A stretch of 64,000 nt of DNA from assembly GCA_021816155.1 (NCBI GenBank), contig JAKAZA010000001.1, positions 6,018-70,017 of the forward strand, read 5' to 3'. The position numbers were made by a program, and so were the translations under genes. Of the stretch, positions 32,131 through 42,969 are shown piece by piece. The notes under the pieces are model-generated. The model was not told the DNA's origin. It made no database searches and saw nothing but the letters and a program-made list of their open reading frames with translations. The first letter of the stretch is position 1; every line of letters begins with the position of its first letter. The DNA is from Pseudomonadota bacterium. GTDB taxonomy: Bacteria; Pseudomonadota; Alphaproteobacteria; Caulobacterales; Caulobacteraceae.

Positions 32131-32703
32131 CTATTCGGCCGGGACCGTCTGCTTCAGCGCGACGTGCTCGCCGCGCGCATTGACCGGATCGTGGGCGACG
32201 TCATCCGGCCGGAAGGCGCGCGTCAGAGCGGCCATCTCCATGTGGATGCCGTTCGGATCGCGGAAGTAGACCGAGCGGATCCACACGCCGTCGTGCATCT
32301 CCGCCGCCGCGCCGGCCGGCGAGTCGTCGTGGTTGATGACATAGGCCTTGATCCCCTTCGACCTCAGCCGCGCGACGTAGGCGTCGAACTTCTCGAGCGG
32401 GACCGAGATGGCGAGGTGGTTCATCGAGGCGTGAGCGGTCACCGAGCCCTTGCCTCGGACGTCCTCGTGCATCGACGCGATTCCCGGGGCCGCGGGCGGC
32501 GCGTCCGGAAACCAGAAGAACGCGATCAGCGCGCCGCCGCCGCAGTCGAAGAAAAAATGCTGCCCGCGTCCGTTCGCGAACTCGATCGTCTTGACCAGCG
32601 GCATCTCGAGCACGTTCTCGTAGAAATCGACCGTCTCGGCCATGTCGCGGGCGACCAGGGCGACGTGGTTCACCCCGAAATACTCGATGCGCTCCTCGGC
32701 CAT
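32131..32703 (-). CDS. VOC (glyoxalase/bleomycin-resistance/dioxygenase) family protein, paralogue 1
   Basis: VNHVALVARDMAETVDFYENVLEMPLVKT...GQHFFFDCGGG...SMNHLAISV...IRSVYFRDPNGIHMEM. Confidence 0.85.
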   Translation of the reverse strand: MAEERIEYFGVNHVALVARDMAETVDFYENVLEMPLVKTIEFANGRGQHFFFDCGGGALIAFFWFPDAPPAAPGIASMHEDVRGKGSVTAHASMNHLAISVPLEKFDAYVARLRSKGIKAYVINHDDSPAGAAAEMHDGVWIRSVYFRDPNGIHMEMAALTRAFRPDDVAHDPVNARGEHVALKQTVPAE

Positions 32704-32836
32704 GCTTTCCTCCTTCGGTGCTGTTCCGCTCCGTGTCCGGAAGGCTACGCGTGGAACGCGGCGGCGCCCAACGACGATGTCGTGCGCCGCGTCGTTTCCT
32801 CGGACTGCGCCATAAGCGGGGGAGCCGGCGCCTCAG

Positions 32837-33223
32837 CTAGGGGAGCGCCTCCGGCTCTCGCCAGGCCGTGATCTCGCGCATGCGCCTGCGGCGCGTGGCG
32901 CGGAACCAGAAGTTGCCGACGACGGCCGCGACCCCGAGACCCGAGGACAGCAAGGGCGGCGCATGGATGGCGAACGAGACCAGGCCCGGCGCGAAGGAGA
33001 AGGCGGCCACGACCAGCATCAGCCAGCGTTCCGCGTCTTTCGCGCGCCGCCAGTCGCCGAAGGCGTCGGGCCGACTGCCCAGGCCAGCGGCGATCTCGGC
33101 GCGGAACGCCTCGGCGTCCGTGCTGAGTTCCTGCGCCGGGCGGGCAGGGCGCGGCTGCGCGGGCGACGGCGGCTGCTGCGCCCGCGCTCCTCGGCGCCCG
33201 AAAATGGCGGTGGTCGTGGGCAT
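32837..33223 (-). CDS. Hypothetical membrane protein
   Basis: 128 aa from ATG 33223. Pro/Ala/Gln-rich N-terminus and two hydrophobic helices (WLMLVVAAFSFAPGLVSFAI, GLGVAAVVGNFWF). Directly downstream of the hybrid kinase. Confidence 0.45.
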   Translation of the reverse strand: MPTTTAIFGRRGARAQQPPSPAQPRPARPAQELSTDAEAFRAEIAAGLGSRPDAFGDWRRAKDAERWLMLVVAAFSFAPGLVSFAIHAPPLLSSGLGVAAVVGNFWFRATRRRRMREITAWREPEALP

Positions 33224-33266
33224 TCGCGCGCCGCGTCTGGACACCGGCGATCCTAGTCGGGCTGGG

Positions 33267-34757
33267 TTAAGCGACCGTAGCCTTGGCCGAAGCGCGTTCC
33301 AGCGCCGAAGCGACTGCGGCGGCGATCTGGGCGACATTGTAAGGCTTGCGCACCACCGGCGCGTCGAAGCCCTCGGGCGCCGGGGCGGCGTCGCCGTAGC
33401 CGGTCGCGAAGATGAACGGCTTGCCCCTGGCGCTCAGCGCCGCGGCCACCGGCGTAACCGACGCGCCGTTGAGATTGGCGTCCAGCACAGCCACGTCGAA
33501 CGACGTGTCGGCCAGCTGCAGCGCCTCGTCGACGTCGGCCGCCGTGCCCACCACCCGCGCCCCTGCCTCGGTGAGGCCGGCCTCGAGCTCCAGCGCCAAG
33601 AGCACCGCGTCCTCGACTATCAATATGCGCCGGCCCCGCACCGCCTCGGACGCGAACGCGCCGGCCGAGGCGCCTTCCTGCGGCTCCGGCTTGGTCTCCG
33701 GCGGCCGCTCCGCGGGGGCCGACGCTTCCGTCGCCGCCATGGCCGTCGCGTCCGCGGTGATCCGGGCGCGGGCGCCGTCGGGGCGGAACTCCAGCAGCGC
33801 CTCGCCGCCCAGCTCGCGTCCCGTGACTCGCTCCAGCAGCGTCACGCCGAATCCGCGATGTGTCGGCTGGCCGACCGATGGTCCGCCGCGCTCGGTCCAG
33901 GTCAGTTCGAAGCCCGCGCCTGCGCGCCTTGCCCAGGTCACCTCCACGCGACCCGTCTCGACCGAAAGCGCGCCGAACTTGACCGCGTTGGTGGCCAGCT
34001 CGTGCAGCGCCAGGGCCAGCGCGTTGGTGGCGCGCGGATTGAGCAGGATCTCTGGTCCCGACCAGCGCGCCTGGCCGGGCGCGAGGCCGCCGAGCTCGGC
34101 CGCGGCGATGTTGCCGATCTCGGCGCCGCGCCAGCGTGTGGCCATCAGAAGCGCATGGGCCGAGGCCATCGCGTCGAGCCGGCCGGCGAAGGTCTTGAGA
34201 AACGCGTCGAGCGAGGTCGTGCGGCGCGCCGATTGCGCCGCGAGCGATTGCACCGAGGCCAGGAGATTCTTCACCCGGTGGTCGAGCTCGGCGACGAGGG
34301 CGTTGCGGGCCGTTTCCTCCGCCTTGCGCCGGGAGATGTCCTCGATGATCCCCACTACCCGGCCGGGGCCGCCTGCGGCGCCCTTGATCTCGCTCGCTAC
34401 GTTGCGCAGCCAGACCAGGCGCCCGTCGTCGGGCCGCGTGAAGCGGAATTCGACGTCCAGCCGTCCCGTCTCCGCCAGCTCGACCTCATCCGCACGCTTC
34501 AGCGCGGCGAGGTCGTCGGGATGGACATGCGCGGCGAGCCGCCCACCCTCGCGAGGCAGCTCGCCGGCGGGAAGGCCGGTGATGGCGGCGAGGCGTTCGC
34601 TGACGACGAACCTGTCTTCGGCTCTGTCGAGCTCGTATTCGCCGATCCGCGCCGCGCTAAGGGCGAGGCTCGCGAGCTCGCTGCCGAGGGCCGGCTGCTC
34701 GCTTGCAATGCGCGTATTACGTGCGTCGTCCACCATACTCGCCAGCTTATGCCGCAT
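33267..34757 (-). CDS. Hybrid sensor kinase: PAS + HWE/HisKA_2 kinase + C-terminal receiver
   Basis: H-box ELDHRVKNLLASVQS, HELATNAVKFGA, W-x-E (LTWTERGGP), then receiver RILIVEDAVL...VAVLDANLNG...FIFATGYG. Start trimmed to ATG 34757 (MRHKLASMVDD). Confidence 0.85.
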   Translation of the reverse strand: MRHKLASMVDDARNTRIASEQPALGSELASLALSAARIGEYELDRAEDRFVVSERLAAITGLPAGELPREGGRLAAHVHPDDLAALKRADEVELAETGRLDVEFRFTRPDDGRLVWLRNVASEIKGAAGGPGRVVGIIEDISRRKAEETARNALVAELDHRVKNLLASVQSLAAQSARRTTSLDAFLKTFAGRLDAMASAHALLMATRWRGAEIGNIAAAELGGLAPGQARWSGPEILLNPRATNALALALHELATNAVKFGALSVETGRVEVTWARRAGAGFELTWTERGGPSVGQPTHRGFGVTLLERVTGRELGGEALLEFRPDGARARITADATAMAATEASAPAERPPETKPEPQEGASAGAFASEAVRGRRILIVEDAVLLALELEAGLTEAGARVVGTAADVDEALQLADTSFDVAVLDANLNGASVTPVAAALSARGKPFIFATGYGDAAPAPEGFDAPVVRKPYNVAQIAAAVASALERASAKATVA

Positions 34758-34884
34758 TTGAGGGCATGGCGACGAGTCAAAAACCGGGCGGCGCGAATCG
34801 CGCCTTGCCGCGTTTCCGCCTATAGTGACGACAGCAAGGCCGGCGGCCGCGGATCGCCTGGCCGGCAAGTCCGGAGACGAGCGC

Positions 34885-35250
34885 ATGCCCGACGACACCA
34901 TCGCGACCGCTGAAGCCGCGGCGTCCGACGCCGCCACGTCCACGCGTCGCGTCGGCAAGACCGCCCACGCCGCCGCGGAGAAGGGCCAGGACAGCCTGAA
35001 CGAGGCGATCGAGCTGGCTGAGCGGAATATCCGCGATGCGGCGCGCCGCATCGAAAAAGCCGTGCGCGAAGCCGTCGAGCAGATTCGCGCGCACGCCGGT
35101 CCCTATCGCGAGCAGGCCAGCCAGCAGCTCGACGAGGCCTCGAAGTACCTCGTCGAGCGTGTCAAAGAGCGGCCGGTGACGGCGACCGCCGCGGGCCTCG
35201 CGGTCGGTCTTTTGCTCGGTCTCATGCTGGCCAACCGCTCCAGCAAGTGA
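34885..35250 (+). CDS. DUF883 (ElaB/YqjD/YgaM-like) membrane-anchored stress protein
   Basis: Helical Ala/Glu/Arg-rich body and the characteristic tail ERPVTATAAGLAVGLLLGLMLANR. ATG 34885 follows GGAGA. Confidence 0.8.
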   Translation: MPDDTIATAEAAASDAATSTRRVGKTAHAAAEKGQDSLNEAIELAERNIRDAARRIEKAVREAVEQIRAHAGPYREQASQQLDEASKYLVERVKERPVTATAAGLAVGLLLGLMLANRSSK

Positions 35251-35648
35251 TCTTCCGCAGGCTGCTCTATTTCCTCGCCGGCGCCGCCGCGCTGAGCGCG
35301 AGCGCCGGCATAGTCATGGTGGCGCTCGCCTATGCGCTCTACGCGCTGGTGAGGCCGGCGCTCGGGCCGGCCGGGGCGTCGGCCGTCGTCGCGCTCGCCG
35401 CGGCCGCGATGATCGGCCTGATCGGTCTCTTTCTCGCTGGCCTCGCCAGGCTGCCGAAGCGCCGCAGGTCCGAGCCTGAGAGCCTGGCCGAACACGTCGC
35501 CGACTTTGTCCGCGCCAGGCCGATCGCTTCGATCGGCGCCGCGATCGCCGCCGGGCTCCTGGCCGTGCGCAATCCCGGCTACCTCGGGGCTGCGGTGCGC
35601 GCCTTCATGGACATCGACGAGCCGCCGCGCCGGCGCCGGCGCCGGTAG
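35247..35648 (+). CDS. YqjE-like (phage-holin-family / DUF1469-like) inner-membrane protein
   Basis: Two long hydrophobic helices and a basic tail. GTGA overlap with the DUF883 gene mirrors the enterobacterial yqjD-yqjE arrangement. Confidence 0.55.
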   Translation: MIFRRLLYFLAGAAALSASAGIVMVALAYALYALVRPALGPAGASAVVALAAAAMIGLIGLFLAGLARLPKRRRSEPESLAEHVADFVRARPIASIGAAIAAGLLAVRNPGYLGAAVRAFMDIDEPPRRRRRR

Positions 35649-35660
35649 GGCGGAAGCCGC

Positions 35661-36629
35661 CTATCTCAGCCCCAGGGCGTCAATCGCGGCCGTCCGGTCG
35701 GGCTCGAGCGGGCCGGCGGCCTCCGCGGCGAGGCATTGCGCAAGCTCGGCGCGGTTCTTGACCCCCAGCACCACGGTGTCCACGCCTTCGATGCCGAGCG
35801 CATAGCGGTGCGCGACGTAGGCCGGGTCCTCGCCCCAGCGCGCGCAGAGGTCGCGGAACGGCGCGGCGCGGTCGTAATCGAGGCGGTCGGGATGGTTCGC
35901 GGACAGTGCGCGGTCCACGGCGGCCGTGAGCGCGCCGGCCTGCACGGCGCGGATGCCCATCACGCCCACGCCGGCGCTGCGGGCGGCCGCGATCACCTCT
36001 CTTGGCCGCGCGGGGCCGCCGAAACGGTTGAGGGCGCCGGCGCTGTCCATCAGGTTGGCGATCGCCTGCACGGCCTGCGGCTTCGGGTGACGGCCGACGG
36101 CGCGGATCACGGCGGCTGGTTCGCCGATGCCGGTGACGCCCCACGCGCCGACGAGTCCTTCCGCCTTCAACGCCTCCATCGTAGGGACGACCTCGTCGAC
36201 ATAGAGCGACCAGCGCGTCGCGACCTGATCGCGCCGTTCCGGCTGGTGCGCGTAGACGAAGTCGTCGGCGCAGATGTTGGTGTGCAGAAAGAAGAGGTCG
36301 ACCCGCTCCAGCCTCATCGCCGCGAGGCTCGCCTGCAGCGAGGCGCGCAGGCGAGGCGCCGCCTCCGCCGCCGGGATCGTGCCGAGGGCGTGCTTGGTGG
36401 TGATCCTCACCCCCTGCGGCAGGCGCCCGCCGAATGTCTCGCCAATGAAGGTCTCGCAGTTGCGGTAGCCGGGCGCCGCATCCAGCACGTCGATCCCGCC
36501 GTCGAGCGCCGCGGCCAGCGTCGCCCGCGCCTCCTCGGCCGAGGTTTCTCCCCAGATCTGGCCGATGCCGCCGCCACCCAGCGTCAGCCGGCTCACCGGT
36601 CCCAGCGGCCCGAGATTGCGCTTTTCCAT
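35661..36629 (-). CDS. Aldo/keto reductase
   Basis: MEKRNLGPLGPVSRLTLGGGGIGQIWG...DAAPGYRNCETFIGE...VDLFFLH... Start trimmed to ATG 36629. The rest of the 537-aa track ORF is antisense to the VOC gene. Confidence 0.9.
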   Translation of the reverse strand: MEKRNLGPLGPVSRLTLGGGGIGQIWGETSAEEARATLAAALDGGIDVLDAAPGYRNCETFIGETFGGRLPQGVRITTKHALGTIPAAEAAPRLRASLQASLAAMRLERVDLFFLHTNICADDFVYAHQPERRDQVATRWSLYVDEVVPTMEALKAEGLVGAWGVTGIGEPAAVIRAVGRHPKPQAVQAIANLMDSAGALNRFGGPARPREVIAAARSAGVGVMGIRAVQAGALTAAVDRALSANHPDRLDYDRAAPFRDLCARWGEDPAYVAHRYALGIEGVDTVVLGVKNRAELAQCLAAEAAGPLEPDRTAAIDALGLR

Positions 36630-36743
36630 CGAGCCCCTCCTCGCCCATTTCGCGGTCGGCGCCCAGGCTGACATCGCGTCAGTCTGGCCTTTCGCAAAAG
36701 CCGGGACGATGATCGACCCAGGCGAGATACGAGAGGAAGCGCC

Positions 36744-37280
36744 ATGAAGACCAAGGGCATCAACCATCTGGCCCTCGTGTGCCGCGATATGGCCGAGACC
36801 GTGGAATTCTACACCAAGGTGCTCGGCATGCCGCTGGTGAAGACCGTGGCCCTGCCGGATGGCGGGCAGCATTTCTTCTTCGACTGCGGCGGCGGCAGCC
36901 TGCTCGCCTTCTTCTGGTGGGAGAACGCCCCGGCCGCCGCGCCGGGCGTCGCCGCCGTAGAGGACTTCCCAAGGAAGCCGATGAGCGCGGTCGGCTCGAT
37001 GAACCACGTGGCGTTCGAGATGGACGAGGATCAGCTGGAAGCGAGCATCGAGGCGCTGAAGGCTGCCGGCGTACACGTCTCCGTGCCTGTCGTCGTGAAC
37101 CACGACGACAGCCCAGCTGGCGTCTCGCGCGACATGCACCCGGGGGTCTTCGTGCGCTCGGTCTACTTCACCGACCCCAACGGCATCATGCTCGAGTTCG
37201 CCTGCCTGACTCGCTCGCTCGGCCGGCCGGACGACGTGCGCCACGCCCCGGCGCGGGCCAAGGCGACGGTCCAAGCCTGA
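36744..37280 (+). CDS. VOC family protein, paralogue 2
   Basis: INHLALVCRDMAETVEFYTKVLGMPLVKT...GQHFFFDCGGG...SMNHVAFEM...VRSVYFTDPNGIMLEF. It clearly aligns with 32131..32703. Confidence 0.85.
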   Translation: MKTKGINHLALVCRDMAETVEFYTKVLGMPLVKTVALPDGGQHFFFDCGGGSLLAFFWWENAPAAAPGVAAVEDFPRKPMSAVGSMNHVAFEMDEDQLEASIEALKAAGVHVSVPVVVNHDDSPAGVSRDMHPGVFVRSVYFTDPNGIMLEFACLTRSLGRPDDVRHAPARAKATVQA

Positions 37281-37915
37281 TGCCGCGCCTCAGGGAGATC
37301 CCGCGCGCCGAGGTGACCTCGGAGACCGTGCTGCGCAGCTACAAGCTGCTGTTCGGCGACCGCGACCCGGTGAGCCAGCCCGGCACCGCCACCGGCACGC
37401 GCGGCGACTGGTGGACCGTGTTCGCCAATTCGCCGGACGTGTTCGACCACGCCGTACGCGGCTTCGCGCTCTACCGCGGAGAGCGTAAGCTCGACCCGGT
37501 GCTGCGCGAGCTCGGCCAGACCCGCGTCGGCTGGGCCAGGGGCAGCCAGTTCGTTTTCTCGCAGCACTGCAAGTCGCTGAGAGGGCTCGGCGTCTCGGAG
37601 GAGAAGATCGCGGCGGTGCCGAGCTGGCAGACGGCGGACTGCTTCTCGAAGGAGGAGCGCGCGGTGCTGGCCTACGCCGACTGTCTCGCACTGGCCGGCG
37701 GGCGCACGCCCGACGGTGTGTTCCAGGCGCTCAAGGCGTTTCTGTCAGACGAGCAGATCCTGGAGCTCACCTACATCACCTGCCTCTACGACATGCACGC
37801 GGTGATGGTGCGGGCGCTGCGCCTGGAGTTCGACGATCGCGACGATCCGATCGTGGAGGTGGCCGCGCCGGAGGACTTCAAGGCTCGCGACTTCCTCGAC
37901 ACCGGGCGGCGCTGA
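37280..37915 (+). CDS. Carboxymuconolactone decarboxylase (AhpD-like) family protein
   Basis: MPRLREIPRAEVTSETVL...FVFSQHCKSLRGLGVSEEKIAAV...FSKEERAVLAYADCL. ATG 37280 overlaps the VOC stop (TGATG). Confidence 0.75.
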   Translation: MPRLREIPRAEVTSETVLRSYKLLFGDRDPVSQPGTATGTRGDWWTVFANSPDVFDHAVRGFALYRGERKLDPVLRELGQTRVGWARGSQFVFSQHCKSLRGLGVSEEKIAAVPSWQTADCFSKEERAVLAYADCLALAGGRTPDGVFQALKAFLSDEQILELTYITCLYDMHAVMVRALRLEFDDRDDPIVEVAAPEDFKARDFLDTGRR

Positions 37916-37958
37916 ACAGGGCCCGGGCCTTCTCGTCCGCGCCGCCGTGTGAAATCAT

Positions 37959-38942
37959 TTGCGCGTCCCGACGGGGGTGCGTCGATTGGCTAATGTCTTC
38001 ATAAGCTATGCGCGGCGTGACAAGGCCCGAGTAGCCCAGCTGACTGCCGCGCTCGAGAACGAGGGCCTTTCGGTCTGGTGGGACAGCGAGCTCGTGCCGG
38101 GCCGGCGCTATCGTGAGGTGATCGACGAGCAGCTCTCGCAGGCCGACTGCATCCTTGTGGTCTGGACCGCCGCCGCGCTCGAGAGCGACTGGGTGCAGGA
38201 CGAGGCGGAGGAGGGTCGGCAGCGAGGCGTGTTGATCCCGGTGGTGCTTGAGCCGGTGCGGCCGCCGGCCGGGTTCCGTCAGGTGCAGGCAGCCGACCTC
38301 AGCCAATGGACCGGTAGCCCGCAGCATCCCGAGTTCCGCTCGCTGGTCTTCGCCGTGCGCAGCCTCGTGCAGATCGCCCGCGCCGCCCGCCGCGTCGACC
38401 CGTCCGTTCCGGGCGAGCCCGTCGCGCGAGCGGCCGACGGTCCCCCTCCTCCTGCGCCGGACCCGGTTCCAGCGCCCGCGCCTTCGGCCGCCGCAATCGT
38501 TCCGCAGGAGCGCCGCTCCTCGGCCTCGACGACCGTTCCGGGCGTCTTCGCAGCCACCGCCTTCTCATGGCTATGGTGGGCCGGGGCGACGTTTTACGCG
38601 GTCGTCGCGGTCACCCTGCTGAATGCCGCCGACGGATCTTCAGAGATCTGGCCTTACGTGCTGGCGCTGCCGCCCGCGTTCGCCTGCGCCGTAGCGCTCG
38701 TTTGTCGCCGGGCTGCGCTGGAGGCCAAGGCGCGGGTCTGGGTGGCCTTGGCCAGTCTCGCCGGCGGCGGGCTGGTAGCCCTCTTCGCCTTGTGGAGGAT
38801 GGAGTCGGGCAGCCTGGTCGAGATGACCGCCGTCATCAGCGTGTTGGCGATCGCGGGGATGGGGTTGGCCTTCGCGTTCGCCACGCCCGGCGCGCTTGCG
38901 CTGAAGCGGGTCCGTTCGTCGCCTGCGCGGCGCGCGACGTGA
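37959..38942 (+). CDS. TIR-domain protein with a C-terminal four-helix transmembrane module
   Basis: TIR_2-like N-terminus VFISYARRDKARVAQLTAALENEGLSVWWDSELVPGRRYREVIDEQLSQADCILVVWTAAALESDWVQDEAEEG. Pro-rich linker GPPPPAPDPVPAPAPS. About four hydrophobic helices between aa 195 and 314. The start may be GTG 37977 or TTG 37986 instead of TTG 37959. Confidence 0.8.
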   Translation: MRVPTGVRRLANVFISYARRDKARVAQLTAALENEGLSVWWDSELVPGRRYREVIDEQLSQADCILVVWTAAALESDWVQDEAEEGRQRGVLIPVVLEPVRPPAGFRQVQAADLSQWTGSPQHPEFRSLVFAVRSLVQIARAARRVDPSVPGEPVARAADGPPPPAPDPVPAPAPSAAAIVPQERRSSASTTVPGVFAATAFSWLWWAGATFYAVVAVTLLNAADGSSEIWPYVLALPPAFACAVALVCRRAALEAKARVWVALASLAGGGLVALFALWRMESGSLVEMTAVISVLAIAGMGLAFAFATPGALALKRVRSSPARRAT

Positions 38943-39011
38943 GCCGAACCGCTCCCGCCGCCCGCGGCGAGGTGCTAGGAGCGTCGCCAATCAACGTGAG
39001 GGAGTGAGCCC

Positions 39012-40958
<1,947 letters not shown>

Positions 40959-40968
40959 CCGCCGGCGT

Positions 40969-41502
40969 TCAGAATCCGGCGCCGATCCGGCCGAGGCGCT
41001 CGCGCATCTGTTTCAGCCGCCGGTCGATCTCGGCCATGGTGCGGTTGAGCGCCCCTTCGTCGTCGCGCCAGACCTGCACGGCGCGCGCCCAGACGAGGGT
41101 CATGGCGGCCAGCCGCGGCGCGGTGGCCGGCACGCCCGCGGCTTCCAGGATCGCGCGGGCGGTGAGGGGCAGGTGCGCGGCGAGCGCAATGCGGCTTTCA
41201 CCCTTCGCCATCGAGAGCAGCGCGGCGCGGTTCGGCTCCATCGCCTCGATCCGGGCCATCGCGGCGTCGAAAAGGCGGTCGTGGACGTCGTCCGACGGAG
41301 TGGCCGCGGTGGCGAGCGCTGCCTGGTCCAGCTGCCGGGACAGCGCCAGCGTGAGCATCGGCTTGCCGGGCGTCTCGGCGTAGAGCTGGGCGAAATCGAC
41401 GCCGGCGCGCTCGGCGATCTGGCGCAGCGACACCTCGCGCCAGGGCCGTTCCGCCGCCAGGGCCAGGGCCGCGTCCACGGCCTTATCTAGAGTCTCGCTC
41501 AT
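40969..41502 (-). CDS. TetR-fold regulator-like protein
   Basis: N-terminal HTH-like VSLRQIAERAGVDFAQLY followed by an all-helical body. The family assignment is tentative. Confidence 0.55.
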   Translation of the reverse strand: MSETLDKAVDAALALAAERPWREVSLRQIAERAGVDFAQLYAETPGKPMLTLALSRQLDQAALATAATPSDDVHDRLFDAAMARIEAMEPNRAALLSMAKGESRIALAAHLPLTARAILEAAGVPATAPRLAAMTLVWARAVQVWRDDEGALNRTMAEIDRRLKQMRERLGRIGAGF

Positions 41503-41542
41503 GCGACGGCATTTGGCGGCGGGGACGCCGCGCGTAAAGCCC

Positions 41543-42331
41543 TCAGCGTCCCAGCTCTCTCGAGCGGCGCTCCGCAGCCGCCGCGGCGTCGCGCAGCAGC
41601 GGGCCGAGGCCGGCCGCGCCCATCAGCACCTTCAGCGCCGCTTCCGTAGTGCCCCCGGGCGAGGTGACCTGGCGGCGCAGCTCGGCGGCGTCGGCGCCGG
41701 TGCTGGCCATCAGCGCCGCGGCGCCGGCTGTGGTGGCGCGGGCTAGATCGCGCGCCACCGCCGGGCCGAGGCCCAGCGCCACGCCGGCCGCCTCGAGCGC
41801 CTCGACGAAGGCGTAGAGGTAGGCGGGCGCGGAGCCGGAGACGGCGGTGGCGGCGTGCATCAGGTCTTCGTCGTCGAGGTCGACGACCGTCCCGACCGGC
41901 TCGAACAGCGCGTGCGCCCGCGCCCGCGCCACGGCGTCGGCGGCGTAGACCGAGGCGACGCCGTGGCCGATCCGGGCCGCTGTGGTCGGCATCACGCGAG
42001 CCACCCGGCGGCCGCCGTACGCCATTGCGATGTCCGCGGAGGCCACGCCGGCAGCGACCGAGACGATCACGGCGTCGTCGGCCAGAAGCGGCGCCAGCTC
42101 GGCCGCGACCTCGCGCCAGATCTGTGGCTTCATCGCCAGCGCCACGGTGCGCGCGGCGCCGATCGCCGCGTCGTCCGGGTTCAGGCGCGCGCCGGAGGAT
42201 GCGACATCGGGATTCGGCGCCGGCTCACGGATCATCACCTCGGAGATCGGGAACGCGCCGGCGCGGCGCCAGCCCGCCAACAGCGCTCCGCCCATGCTCC
42301 CTGCGGAGACGAGCAGGATCGGCGTCGTCAT
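41543..42331 (-). CDS. proC: Pyrroline-5-carboxylate reductase
   Basis: Rossmann N-terminus and C-terminal VTSPGGTTEAALKVL motif. Confidence 0.9.
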   Translation of the reverse strand: MTTPILLVSAGSMGGALLAGWRRAGAFPISEVMIREPAPNPDVASSGARLNPDDAAIGAARTVALAMKPQIWREVAAELAPLLADDAVIVSVAAGVASADIAMAYGGRRVARVMPTTAARIGHGVASVYAADAVARARAHALFEPVGTVVDLDDEDLMHAATAVSGSAPAYLYAFVEALEAAGVALGLGPAVARDLARATTAGAAALMASTGADAAELRRQVTSPGGTTEAALKVLMGAAGLGPLLRDAAAAAERRSRELGR

Positions 42332-42340
42332 CGTGGGCCT

Positions 42341-42850
42341 TCAGGCCTGGCCGACGGTCTCGAACATGCAAGCCGCGATCGCGTCCTCGGGCGACTTCCC
42401 AGCCGTCAGCAGGAAGTCGAACGCCGGGTAGAAGCGGTCGGCCGCCTCCATCGCCGCGTCGATCATCGAGGCTGCCTGGGCCAGCGTCGGGCGTTCGCCC
42501 TCGGGCAGCGCCATGGCGTGGCGGAAGACGATCTCGCCGTCGTCGCTCCACACCTCGAAGTGGCCGACCCAGACGCGCTGGTTGACCAGGTTCGCCAGCT
42601 CGCAGGCGCCGGCGCGCTGGTCCTTGGCGGCGCGGCGGTCGATCGAGAGGCACAGCTGCAGGCAGTCGGCCTCGGGACGCCAGGCGAACCAGAGTTCGTA
42701 GTCTCTCCAGTCGCCGGCCAGCGTGAACGCTAGGTCGCCGTCCTCCGTGCGATCGAAGGTGAGGTTCTCGGCGTTGAGCACGCGCTCGACGACGTCCAGC
42801 GGATCGAGGGCGATCATCACGTCGTCTTCTTCCGGGTGCGGGGTGTCCAT
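42341..42850 (-). CDS. YbjN domain-containing protein
   Basis: LDVVERVLNAENLTFDRTEDGDLAFTLAGDWRDYELWFAW...FEVWSDDGEIVFRH. Adjacent to proC, as is usual in Alphaproteobacteria. Start trimmed to ATG 42850. Confidence 0.8.
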   Translation of the reverse strand: MDTPHPEEDDVMIALDPLDVVERVLNAENLTFDRTEDGDLAFTLAGDWRDYELWFAWRPEADCLQLCLSIDRRAAKDQRAGACELANLVNQRVWVGHFEVWSDDGEIVFRHAMALPEGERPTLAQAASMIDAAMEAADRFYPAFDFLLTAGKSPEDAIAACMFETVGQA

Positions 42851-42969
42851 GGGACCTCGATGATCAAGGCGTCCAGGCGCGGGCGAGGCGCCGACGCCGG
42901 AGGACGAGCCTAGTCTGCTTCGCGGCCGCCGTCTCAAGCCGCTTCGCGCCGGGCGCGAACAAGATGGGA

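Follow-up and report, generated by a model that had tools for sequence, protein, structure and literature searches.

In bacteria, TIR proteins have become known as soluble immune enzymes of defence islands, usually accompanied by a sensor or effector partner, and full-length AbTir, PdTIR, BtpA (TcpB) and BtTir are soluble or secreted proteins in which coiled-coil or other N-terminal parts precede a C-terminal TIR domain. The gene described here lies in a 64,000-nucleotide (nt) stretch of a Caulobacteraceae genome (the window; assembly GCA_021816155.1, contig JAKAZA010000001.1, positions 6,018 to 70,017 of the forward strand) and encodes an N-terminal TIR domain tethered to a four-helix membrane module; it is referred to below as the TIR-TM gene (TM, transmembrane). 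With AbTir, PdTIR, BtpA and BtTir the window protein shares the TIR fold and the glutamate of the D-W-x-x-x-E motif, but sequence identity is only ~20-24% and, unlike in those proteins, the TIR domain is N-terminal and membrane-tethered. A first-pass annotation, made from the letters of the window alone, knew of no characterised protein combining TIR with four TM helices, and a literature search likewise found no description of one. It is the TIR-4TM fusion that is new; the domain and its chemistry were known before, as was the logic of membrane-associated effectors.

By analogy, the closest functional precedents are the single-protein TIR systems of E. coli and the Dictyostelium protein TirC. 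Single-protein TIR systems were shown to defend E. coli, with the catalytic residue required and no partner gene (PMC11350192); TIR-V and TIR-IX sense phage portal proteins, and for TIR-V, -VI and -IX the description gives a short TIR domain only (PMC11350192). SpbK of B. subtilis is likewise reported as a single-gene TIR system (PMC12847820). Compared by description only, TIR-V, TIR-VI, TIR-IX and SpbK have a one-gene layout like that of the window protein, but no four-helix membrane module is described for them. In TirC, a TM helix and a linker restrain a toxic TIR NADase (NAD+-cleaving enzyme), and removal of the anchor unleashes toxicity; this eukaryotic protein has its only TM helix at the N-terminus and its TIR domain, acquired from a TIR-STING-like bacterial gene, at the C-terminus (PMC13142454). 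Consisting of a membrane anchor, a disordered linker and a TIR domain, TirC is the closest architectural analogue for restraint by tethering. However, the window protein has four C-terminal helices in place of one N-terminal helix, and relatedness is seen in the TIR fold only.

CBASS (TIR-SAVED) and Pycsar (PycTIR, PycTM) also use TIR domains or TM helices as the killing module. There, TIR and TM effectors are alternative proteins, whereas they are fused in the window protein, and the window contains, unlike these systems, no SAVED, cyclic-nucleotide-binding domain or cyclase. Thoeris proteins of the ThsB type (types I-XI) share the ThsB_TIR Pfam match with the window protein, but an adjoining candidate reader was found only in a sister subtype of the family, and the TIR-TM gene of the window lacks an adjoining effector, its neighbours being CMD and acs. 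To our knowledge, no characterised ThsB protein has a polytopic membrane domain. The family departs from the usual TIR proteins in its polytopic membrane fusion, its stable housekeeping locus and its presence or absence between close relatives, and it combines a TIR domain conserved like a housekeeping enzyme with a membrane half that turns over. If the TIR domain is active, such a protein would offer a one-protein model for the control of TIR assembly by membrane events and would bear on the recruitment of TIR domains outside classical defence islands.

Architecture of the TIR-TM protein

37986..38942 (+), corrected coding sequence of the TIR-linker-4TM protein, most likely 318 amino acids (aa) with a TTG start, stop included
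37986..38390 (+), TIR_2 domain, predicted to be cytoplasmic, residues 1-135 (Pfam, Foldseek, invariant columns)
38202..38204 (+), putative catalytic Glu codon, E73 in the corrected numbering and E82 in the earlier one (W-x-x-x-E alignment)
38391..38534 (+), disordered Pro/Ala-rich linker, residues ~136-183, modelled without secondary structure (pLDDT, the predicted local distance difference test score, 48-60)
38535..38561 (+), short amphipathic helix, residues 184-192, region of the F-x-W-x-x-W motif (AlphaFold2)
38568..38633 (+), membrane helix 1, residues 195-216 (AlphaFold2, pLDDT ~90)
38649..38714 (+), membrane helix 2, residues 222-243, with an invariant Pro (AlphaFold2)
38724..38798 (+), membrane helix 3, residues 247-271 (AlphaFold2 and hydropathy)
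38814..38915 (+), membrane helix 4, residues 277-310 (AlphaFold2 and hydropathy)

The N-terminus had been recognised in the first-pass annotation as a TIR_2-type domain, and both Pfam and structure comparison bear this out. TIR_2 (PF13676) matches residues 13-120 of the longer, 327-aa reading at E 2.7e-25 and 89.7 bits, the cut-off being 28; the families TIR and ThsB_TIR appear as weaker overlapping matches, the latter passing its cut-off (24.7 versus 21.2 bits). An AlphaFold2 model built with 54 homologues (mean pLDDT 78.9) has a TIR fold in its N-terminal part, and Foldseek matches the model to MyD88, AbTir, SARM1, BtpA and PdTIR at probability 1.00, with target-normalised template modelling scores of 0.56-0.72 (0.56-0.68 for the bacterial structures only, i.e., AbTir, PdTIR and BtpA). 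When the PDB sequences were searched with phmmer, residues 3-75 aligned with BtTir, PdTIR and AbTir from beta-A to alpha-C, and the S-D-W-V-Q-D-E stretch was placed over the D/E-W-x-x-x-E of these three proteins. The glutamate of W-x-x-x-E is the catalytic residue in AbTir and SARM1. Its counterpart, which had been proposed to occupy the catalytic position of TIR NADases, is invariant in the 54 homologues, and so is the F-I-S-Y-A-R-x-D motif; the invariant columns number 48, all of them within residues 3-127 and some outside the catalytic motifs. The TIR domain is probably an NAD+-cleaving enzyme.

Profiles of described defence systems recognise the same core. PADLOC's best match, to a SAVED-TIR effector (E 1.3e-12), is confined to the TIR part of that profile, positions 13-89 of its 404. 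PDC-S66 matches over the TIR core (positions 150-223 of 282, E 4.3e-11) and not over its full length, and the NCBIfam model of Thoeris III ThcB4 (NF058526) scores 44.4 bits against an equivalog cut-off of 220. All these matches (SAVED-TIR, PDC-S66, ThsB, ThcB4) cover the TIR core only and lie far under the full-length or curated thresholds.

The Pro-rich linker and the four hydrophobic C-terminal helices, both noted in the first reading of the sequence, reappear in the model. The linker is modelled as disordered, and among homologues its length is highly variable and its sequence unalignable. The four helices are confidently predicted (pLDDT 86-93 in the full model, 85 in an AlphaFold2 model of the membrane part only), although in P0001, the NCBI annotation of the identical protein, the stretch of helix 1 stays below the 1.6 Kyte-Doolittle cut-off, so that the first hydropathy segment there is helix 2. 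The F and W positions of the amphipathic helix are conserved inside the window's subtype, and in the subtype alignment one Pro and one Arg are invariant in the region of helix 2, which is followed by a basic, putatively cytoplasmic loop (C-R-R-A...K-A-R). Three places are rich in basic residues, namely the stretch ahead of helix 1, the loop that joins helices 2 and 3, and the tail (KRVRSSPARRAT) after helix 4; the short loop from helix 1 to helix 2 is acidic. Such a distribution of charge fits an N-in/C-in topology with a cytoplasmic TIR domain.

Outside the family, neither relatives nor structural analogues of the membrane half were detected. Pfam gave no match for the C-terminal half at E up to 1, and a phmmer search with residues 132-318 against 1.84 billion representatives returned only two to three family members and repeat-protein noise, together with one borderline membrane protein of 223 aa. 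With a profile made from nine membrane halves, no match was obtained at E up to 0.001, and the membrane-only model had no meaningful match in the PDB (Foldseek, best E 0.88). Neither by sequence nor by structure does this half resemble SLATT or other Pfam families of TM effectors. It is also worth noting that the four-helix module is tandemly duplicated in at least two subtypes, as shown in one member of each, P0026 and P0003 (self-alignment z ~15), the eight-helix proteins consisting of two four-helix modules joined by a second Pro-rich linker. The occurrence in different subtypes suggests that the duplications arose independently, and such duplication is what pairing of the module with itself would predict; the pattern fits a 4-TM unit that works as a dimer or oligomer.

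Family and selection

In a search of 5.8 billion proteins, 73 relatives were found, about 65 of which share one layout: a highly conserved TIR domain (65-85% identical) is followed by a Pro/Ala linker that varies and by hydrophobic helices, 3-4 or 6-8 in number. All named sources are metagenome-assembled genomes labelled Caulobacteraceae or Caulobacterales; this is a small family of Caulobacteraceae-like genomes from soil metagenomes. Conservation differs sharply along the locus, as seen from identities to the window:

acs, 80-90%
CMD, 78-89%
TIR domain, 69-86%
last 140 residues (membrane half), 20-32%

Genomes whose acs genes are 93-94% identical carry different TIR-TM subtypes, with TIR domains 76-78% and membrane parts ~25% identical. 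Within one closely related group, the ratio of non-synonymous to synonymous substitution rates (dN/dS, Nei-Gojobori method) was as follows:

TIR domain, 0.02-0.09
linker, 0.29-0.55
membrane part, 0.12-0.28
acs, 0.12-0.16
CMD, 0.04-0.13

The TIR domain is constrained as strongly as the housekeeping neighbours, and the membrane part is under weaker but still purifying selection. Purifying selection across the gene argues that the whole protein is functional. Dating of the subtype replacement relative to the flanks by dS was attempted, but dS is compressed to ~0.3-0.6 by the extreme bias in GC content at third codon positions (GC3) and is uninformative. In one Caulobacteraceae genome (L002:1208-1942, P0006), the TIR-TM protein ends early, at 244 aa and with at most one helix, and a 784-nt gap separates the shortened gene from acs. 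A frameshift, decay of this copy or an error of assembly could account for the early end.

Start codon, upstream motif and composition

37948..37958 (+), conserved upstream motif TGTGAAATCAT, consensus TGTGRRATCAT, 25-28 nt 5' of the start codon

The open reading frame at 37959-38942 (+) was confirmed as a real gene, but the start at 37959 assumed in the first-pass annotation very probably does not hold. Homologues begin with M/V/L-ANVF(I/V)SY, and in 25 related loci a start codon stands immediately before A/P-N-V-F-I/V-S-Y (GTG in 18, TTG in four, ATG in three). Because this aligned start codon occupies the same position in all 25, the true start is most likely TTG 37986. The NCBI annotation of the identical protein (P0001, 321 aa) begins at GTG 37977. 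The conserved motif TGTGRRATCAT also speaks against the longer reading, since it ends directly before 37959, and the first nine codons counted from there are better read as a 5' leader.

The motif occurs once per locus, on the + strand and upstream of the TIR-TM gene, in 13 loci, including L026 and L028, which lie in other genomic contexts, and it is absent from 106 other loci searched. In the window there is a single match, and with one mismatch allowed the count is no more than expected by chance; the support for the motif is its conserved position across loci. Conserved in position and also retained in other contexts, it indicates that the TIR-TM gene carries its own upstream element. The element is possibly an extended -10 promoter element or a regulator site, and it matches no consensus that we could name with confidence. 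A weak start codon (GTG or TTG) is used in 22 of the 25 loci, and such near-universal use suggests low translation of a potentially toxic protein.

The composition of the gene is only mildly atypical. GC3 is 0.85 in the TIR domain, 0.78 in the linker and 0.86 in the membrane part, compared with 0.94 in acs. The A/T-ending codons at the beginning of the gene, which the first-pass annotation had called rare for this genome, do stand out in number (five among codons 2-12 versus 0-4 in 16 other genes of the window), but they make a weak argument: homologues have AAC or ATC at these positions, so the codons are a quirk of this genome. Horizontal transfer was considered on the basis of codon usage, and no strong signal was obtained, the GC3 of the membrane half being 0.86.

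Locus and surroundings

38943..39011 (+), spacer of 69 nt between the TIR-TM gene and acs, with the GCTAGGAG element (38974-38981) and a GGGAG ribosome-binding site

The locus was surveyed by context look-ups, a metagenome scan and tblastn searches with the window's neighbours. The gene order AKR (opposite strand), VOC-CMD, TIR-TM, in some cases an aldehyde dehydrogenase gene, and acs holds for most close relatives. At least 12 distinct related loci have the TIR-TM gene placed between CMD and acs, and in eight distinct loci acs begins 47-100 nt downstream of it. Among the carriers of an acs-linked TIR-TM gene is the genome bin GCA_027326805.1. One TIR-TM subtype (L031, L036, L037) has the aldehyde dehydrogenase gene inserted between TIR-TM and acs, and for this reason the junction is a small variable spot. 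In the Caulobacteraceae genome GCA_036502045.1 (L113), the site is empty: AKR, VOC and CMD are followed by 274 nt and an acs that is 85% identical, with no remnant of TIR. In two other relatives, VOC-CMD is followed by unrelated genes, and the family members L026, L028, L048 and L120 are found in unrelated housekeeping contexts, not adjoining acs. Presence or absence between VOC-CMD and acs in related genomes had been proposed in the first-pass annotation as a check on whether the gene belongs to the core; it is syntenic in many relatives and under purifying selection, as a core gene would be, but the empty site in a close relative makes it dispensable, and the TIR-TM gene is accessory, not core. 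The 274-nt spacer of the empty site (L113:6643-6916) contains repeated CACGAAGG and CCTTCGTG words as inverted repeats and resembles a small repetitive extragenic element or a miniature mobile element.

Co-transcription at the locus, raised as a possibility in the first-pass annotation, was not confirmed for the TIR-TM gene. A GCTA-type element and GGGAG align across 13 acs upstream regions, including that of the empty site, and the spacer looks like acs's own promoter and 5' leader, the GCTA-type element being presumably the acs promoter as judged from Caulobacter consensus sequences. No terminator-like site was found between TIR-TM and acs, so transcription could read through from one to the other; still, with a motif belonging to the TIR-TM gene itself and a promoter-like element retained by acs, co-transcription with the neighbours is unlikely. 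Coupling to acs, as an operon or in function, was considered and found unsupported: besides the two elements, the promoter-like one being present at the empty site too, family members elsewhere do not lie beside acs. The linkage is seen only among close relatives (acs at least 80% identical) and, limited to such genomes, is explained by shared ancestry. Rfam found no RNA element in the window.

Genes such as cytochrome bc1, uvrC, ispG, pth and prs mark the window as core chromosome. No CD-NTase, SAVED, STING, ThsA, Argonaute or NLR-like ATPase was found in it, and for CBASS only the TIR part of TIR-SAVED is matched. PADLOC, run on 50 open reading frames of the window and on the 10 genes closest to TIR-TM, had no match near this gene, and no Thoeris effector or signal-binding family is listed for the 50 frames by PADLOC or among the best 25 families of Pfam. 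This agrees with the claim of the first-pass annotation that no known signalling partner is encoded in the window. The word "orphan" used there holds for this window and fails for the family, in whose sister subtype an adjoining protein is found in three contexts (see below). On the whole, the annotation described the domain, the glutamate, the linker, the helices and the lack of a partner in the window correctly, while its start codon and co-transcription are unlikely, its codon argument is weak and "orphan" must be confined to the window. No defence or mobile genes were seen near the TIR-TM gene among the matches listed, and yet the family shows presence/absence polymorphism and other contexts. 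A mobile or viral origin was also considered, but no relatives were found on viral contigs, and plasmids gave only distant TIR domains (45% identity or less).

Sister subtype and related TIR proteins

L028:8986-11430, L048:3225-5642 and L120:2073-3239, TM-TrkA_N-RyR protein (related loci outside the window)

In a sister subtype (L028, L048, L120/121), whose TIR domains are 68-70% identical to that of the window, the TIR-TM gene is followed at three loci, on the same strand and 12-59 nt downstream, by a gene for a protein of ~810 aa. In addition to TM segments at its N-terminus, this protein has domains of the TrkA_N (E 2.5e-11) and RyR (E 5e-13) families. Its three copies are 53-60% identical, the genes upstream differ in all three loci, and PADLOC has no match for it. 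A K+-channel-like pore and a SLOG-like C-terminus were considered for the partner and are unsupported, Pfam giving nothing in the N-terminal 130 aa or the C-terminal ~225 aa at E up to 10. RyR-domain proteins were recently reported to bind or cleave the TIR products 2'cADPR and 3'cADPR, isomers of cyclic ADP-ribose (May 2026 preprint, PMC13232231), and in Thoeris type X a TIR protein is paired with an ion-channel effector (December 2025 preprint). Because of the conserved adjacency and the recognition of TIR-made cADPR by RyR domains, the pair of the sister subtype looks like an undescribed TIR signal generator with its reader. It provides a directly testable lead, timely in view of the work on RyR recognition of such signals. 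No homologue of the partner was found in the 64-kb window.

TIR domains of the wider clade, 39-50% identical to that of the window, are also N-terminal and are usually joined through one TM helix to an outer part, which is an FGE-sulfatase, two c-type cytochrome domains, a TPR array or five TM helices. Because maturation of cytochrome c domains takes place in the periplasm and they follow one TM helix, they place the TIR domain of the cytochrome fusion, and with it this TIR clade, on the cytoplasmic side. The reuse of the TIR domain with interchangeable outer parts is the main ground for suggesting that it delivers a constant output, and that the membrane or periplasmic part is the input that varies. 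In L050, L052, L055-L063 and L004, the TIR domain of this clade forms the putative cytoplasmic N-terminus, a layout resembling that of Toll-like receptors with the order of domains reversed. A TIR-TM-TPR protein, with a TIR domain 45% identical to that of the window, is encoded at L118:3852-5840 (-) on replicon NZ_CP141945.1 of Novosphingobium sp. RL4. Its divergent neighbour (L118:5965-7938, +) has 662 aa, C-terminal TM helices and a weak, under-cut-off match to DUF4231 (E 0.005), which we take to be a SLATT-type family; the two may be another pair of TIR and membrane effector.

Proposed mechanism and alternatives

Our preferred reading, held tentatively and at a little under an even chance, is a membrane-tethered TIR NADase that is activated by clustering and acts by NAD+ depletion. 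By analogy with the precedents above, single-gene abortive infection, NAD+ depletion or membrane-stress sensing, as envisaged in the first-pass annotation, is plausible. From the architecture and the conservation pattern we infer an enzymatic activity, activation by clustering, a trigger and a physiological outcome as follows. The protein would reside in the inner membrane with both termini inside, its NAD+-cleaving TIR domain anchored by a flexible tether of ~45 residues to a self-associating four-helix module. At rest, low expression from the weak start codon and the tethering would hold TIR domains apart and inactive. A membrane event, for which phage entry or lysis proteins, depolarisation and envelope damage are candidates, would alter the packing or clustering of the 4-TM modules, and clustering would bring TIR domains together, completing composite active sites at which NAD+ is cleaved. 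The result would be NAD+ depletion and, in consequence, growth arrest or abortive infection; the main alternative output would be a diffusible product of the ADP-ribose (ADPR) type, read by an unlinked protein. Depletion is the most parsimonious output because no reader is encoded nearby in the window's subtype, and the upstream motif that accompanies the gene into other contexts argues for a self-contained unit.

Several findings weigh against such a depletion enzyme. The dedicated RyR-domain partner of the sister subtype suggests that the ancestral output may be a signal and not depletion. The TIR domain, with its 48 invariant positions, some of them outside the catalytic motifs, shows a conservation that is unusual in immune proteins. 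A defence-island context is lacking, the neighbours here and in related loci being all housekeeping genes, and synteny across many relatives is atypical for mobile defence genes. No relatives were found on viral contigs, and the plasmid matches were distant and TIR-only.

The first of these points leads to a rather doubtful but serious competitor, in which the protein is the sensor half of a Thoeris-like system and makes an ADPR-derived messenger for a reader encoded elsewhere, e.g., a TM-TrkA_N-RyR homologue. It draws on the adjoining partner in three contexts of the sister subtype, on the binding or cleavage of 2'cADPR and 3'cADPR by RyR-domain proteins, on the ion-channel effector of Thoeris type X, and on the many invariant surface residues of TIR outside the catalytic motif, which could serve a conserved product or partner. 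However, no homologue of the partner occurs in the 64-kb window or in the flanks (up to ±8 kb) of the acs-linked loci, and signalling defence systems nearly always have their sensor and effector genes side by side. A more elaborate version appears decidedly unlikely as a whole: a transmembrane TIR receptor with an intramembrane four-helix sensor, whose ADPR-type product is read by RyR/TrkA_N membrane proteins, whose relatives replace the sensor by periplasmic TPR, FGE-sulfatase or cytochrome c parts, and whose solitary, vertically inherited copy in the window has been domesticated for membrane-stress or physiological signalling in place of phage defence. If true, it would constitute a prokaryotic counterpart of the animal cADPR-ryanodine-receptor axis. 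Domestication can also be considered by itself, as a role in NAD+ turnover, dormancy or regulation tied to the state of the envelope or of metabolism, perhaps through acs and aldehyde dehydrogenase. The stable synteny beside acs in at least 12 distinct loci, the housekeeping-grade purifying selection on the TIR domain and the core-gene surroundings, with no viral or mobile-element association, would be expected under such a role. We nevertheless regard it as unlikely: the empty site in a close relative marks the gene as dispensable, the members in L026, L028, L048 and L120 are not beside acs, the promoter-like element of acs is kept with or without the TIR gene and gives no sign of operon coupling, shared ancestry accounts for the linkage among close relatives, and we know of no non-immune cellular role of a bacterial TIR protein.

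Two alternatives remain. In one, the 4-TM module itself would kill and the TIR domain would serve mainly in assembly or sensing, TIR oligomerisation assembling the module into a pore that breaches the membrane. Oligomerising polytopic TM effectors are common in CBASS, Pycsar and Thoeris, and the tandem duplications make the 4-TM unit appear self-associating, but the invariant catalytic Glu and the full set of TIR motifs favour an enzymatic function, the membrane part resembles no known effector (none by Pfam or profile, best Foldseek E 0.88) and diverges too freely for a precise pore, and the role of effector in the sister subtype would more likely fall to a separate membrane protein; we consider a pore very improbable. 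In the other, a catalytically silent TIR domain would act as a membrane adaptor. TIR domains do serve as adaptors in animals, and several invariant residues lie outside the catalytic motif; however, with the W-x-x-x-E glutamate and F-I-S-Y-A-R-x-D both invariant and no partner conserved beside the window's subtype, the chance of a mere scaffold seems close to negligible. A clustering-activated NADase acting by depletion is, on this evidence, the reading that we retain.

Other observations in the window

Among the 50 open reading frames scanned in the window, PADLOC mad2 is matched by one (E 9.1e-22) and a model for type II methyltransferases by another (E 7.3e-10); both lie more than ~4 kb from the TIR gene and are not among the 10 neighbouring genes checked (32134-42937). 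A second VOC/glyoxalase gene is located at 32134-32703 (-), ~4 kb upstream and on the other strand, and is 55% identical to the VOC gene at 36744-37280.

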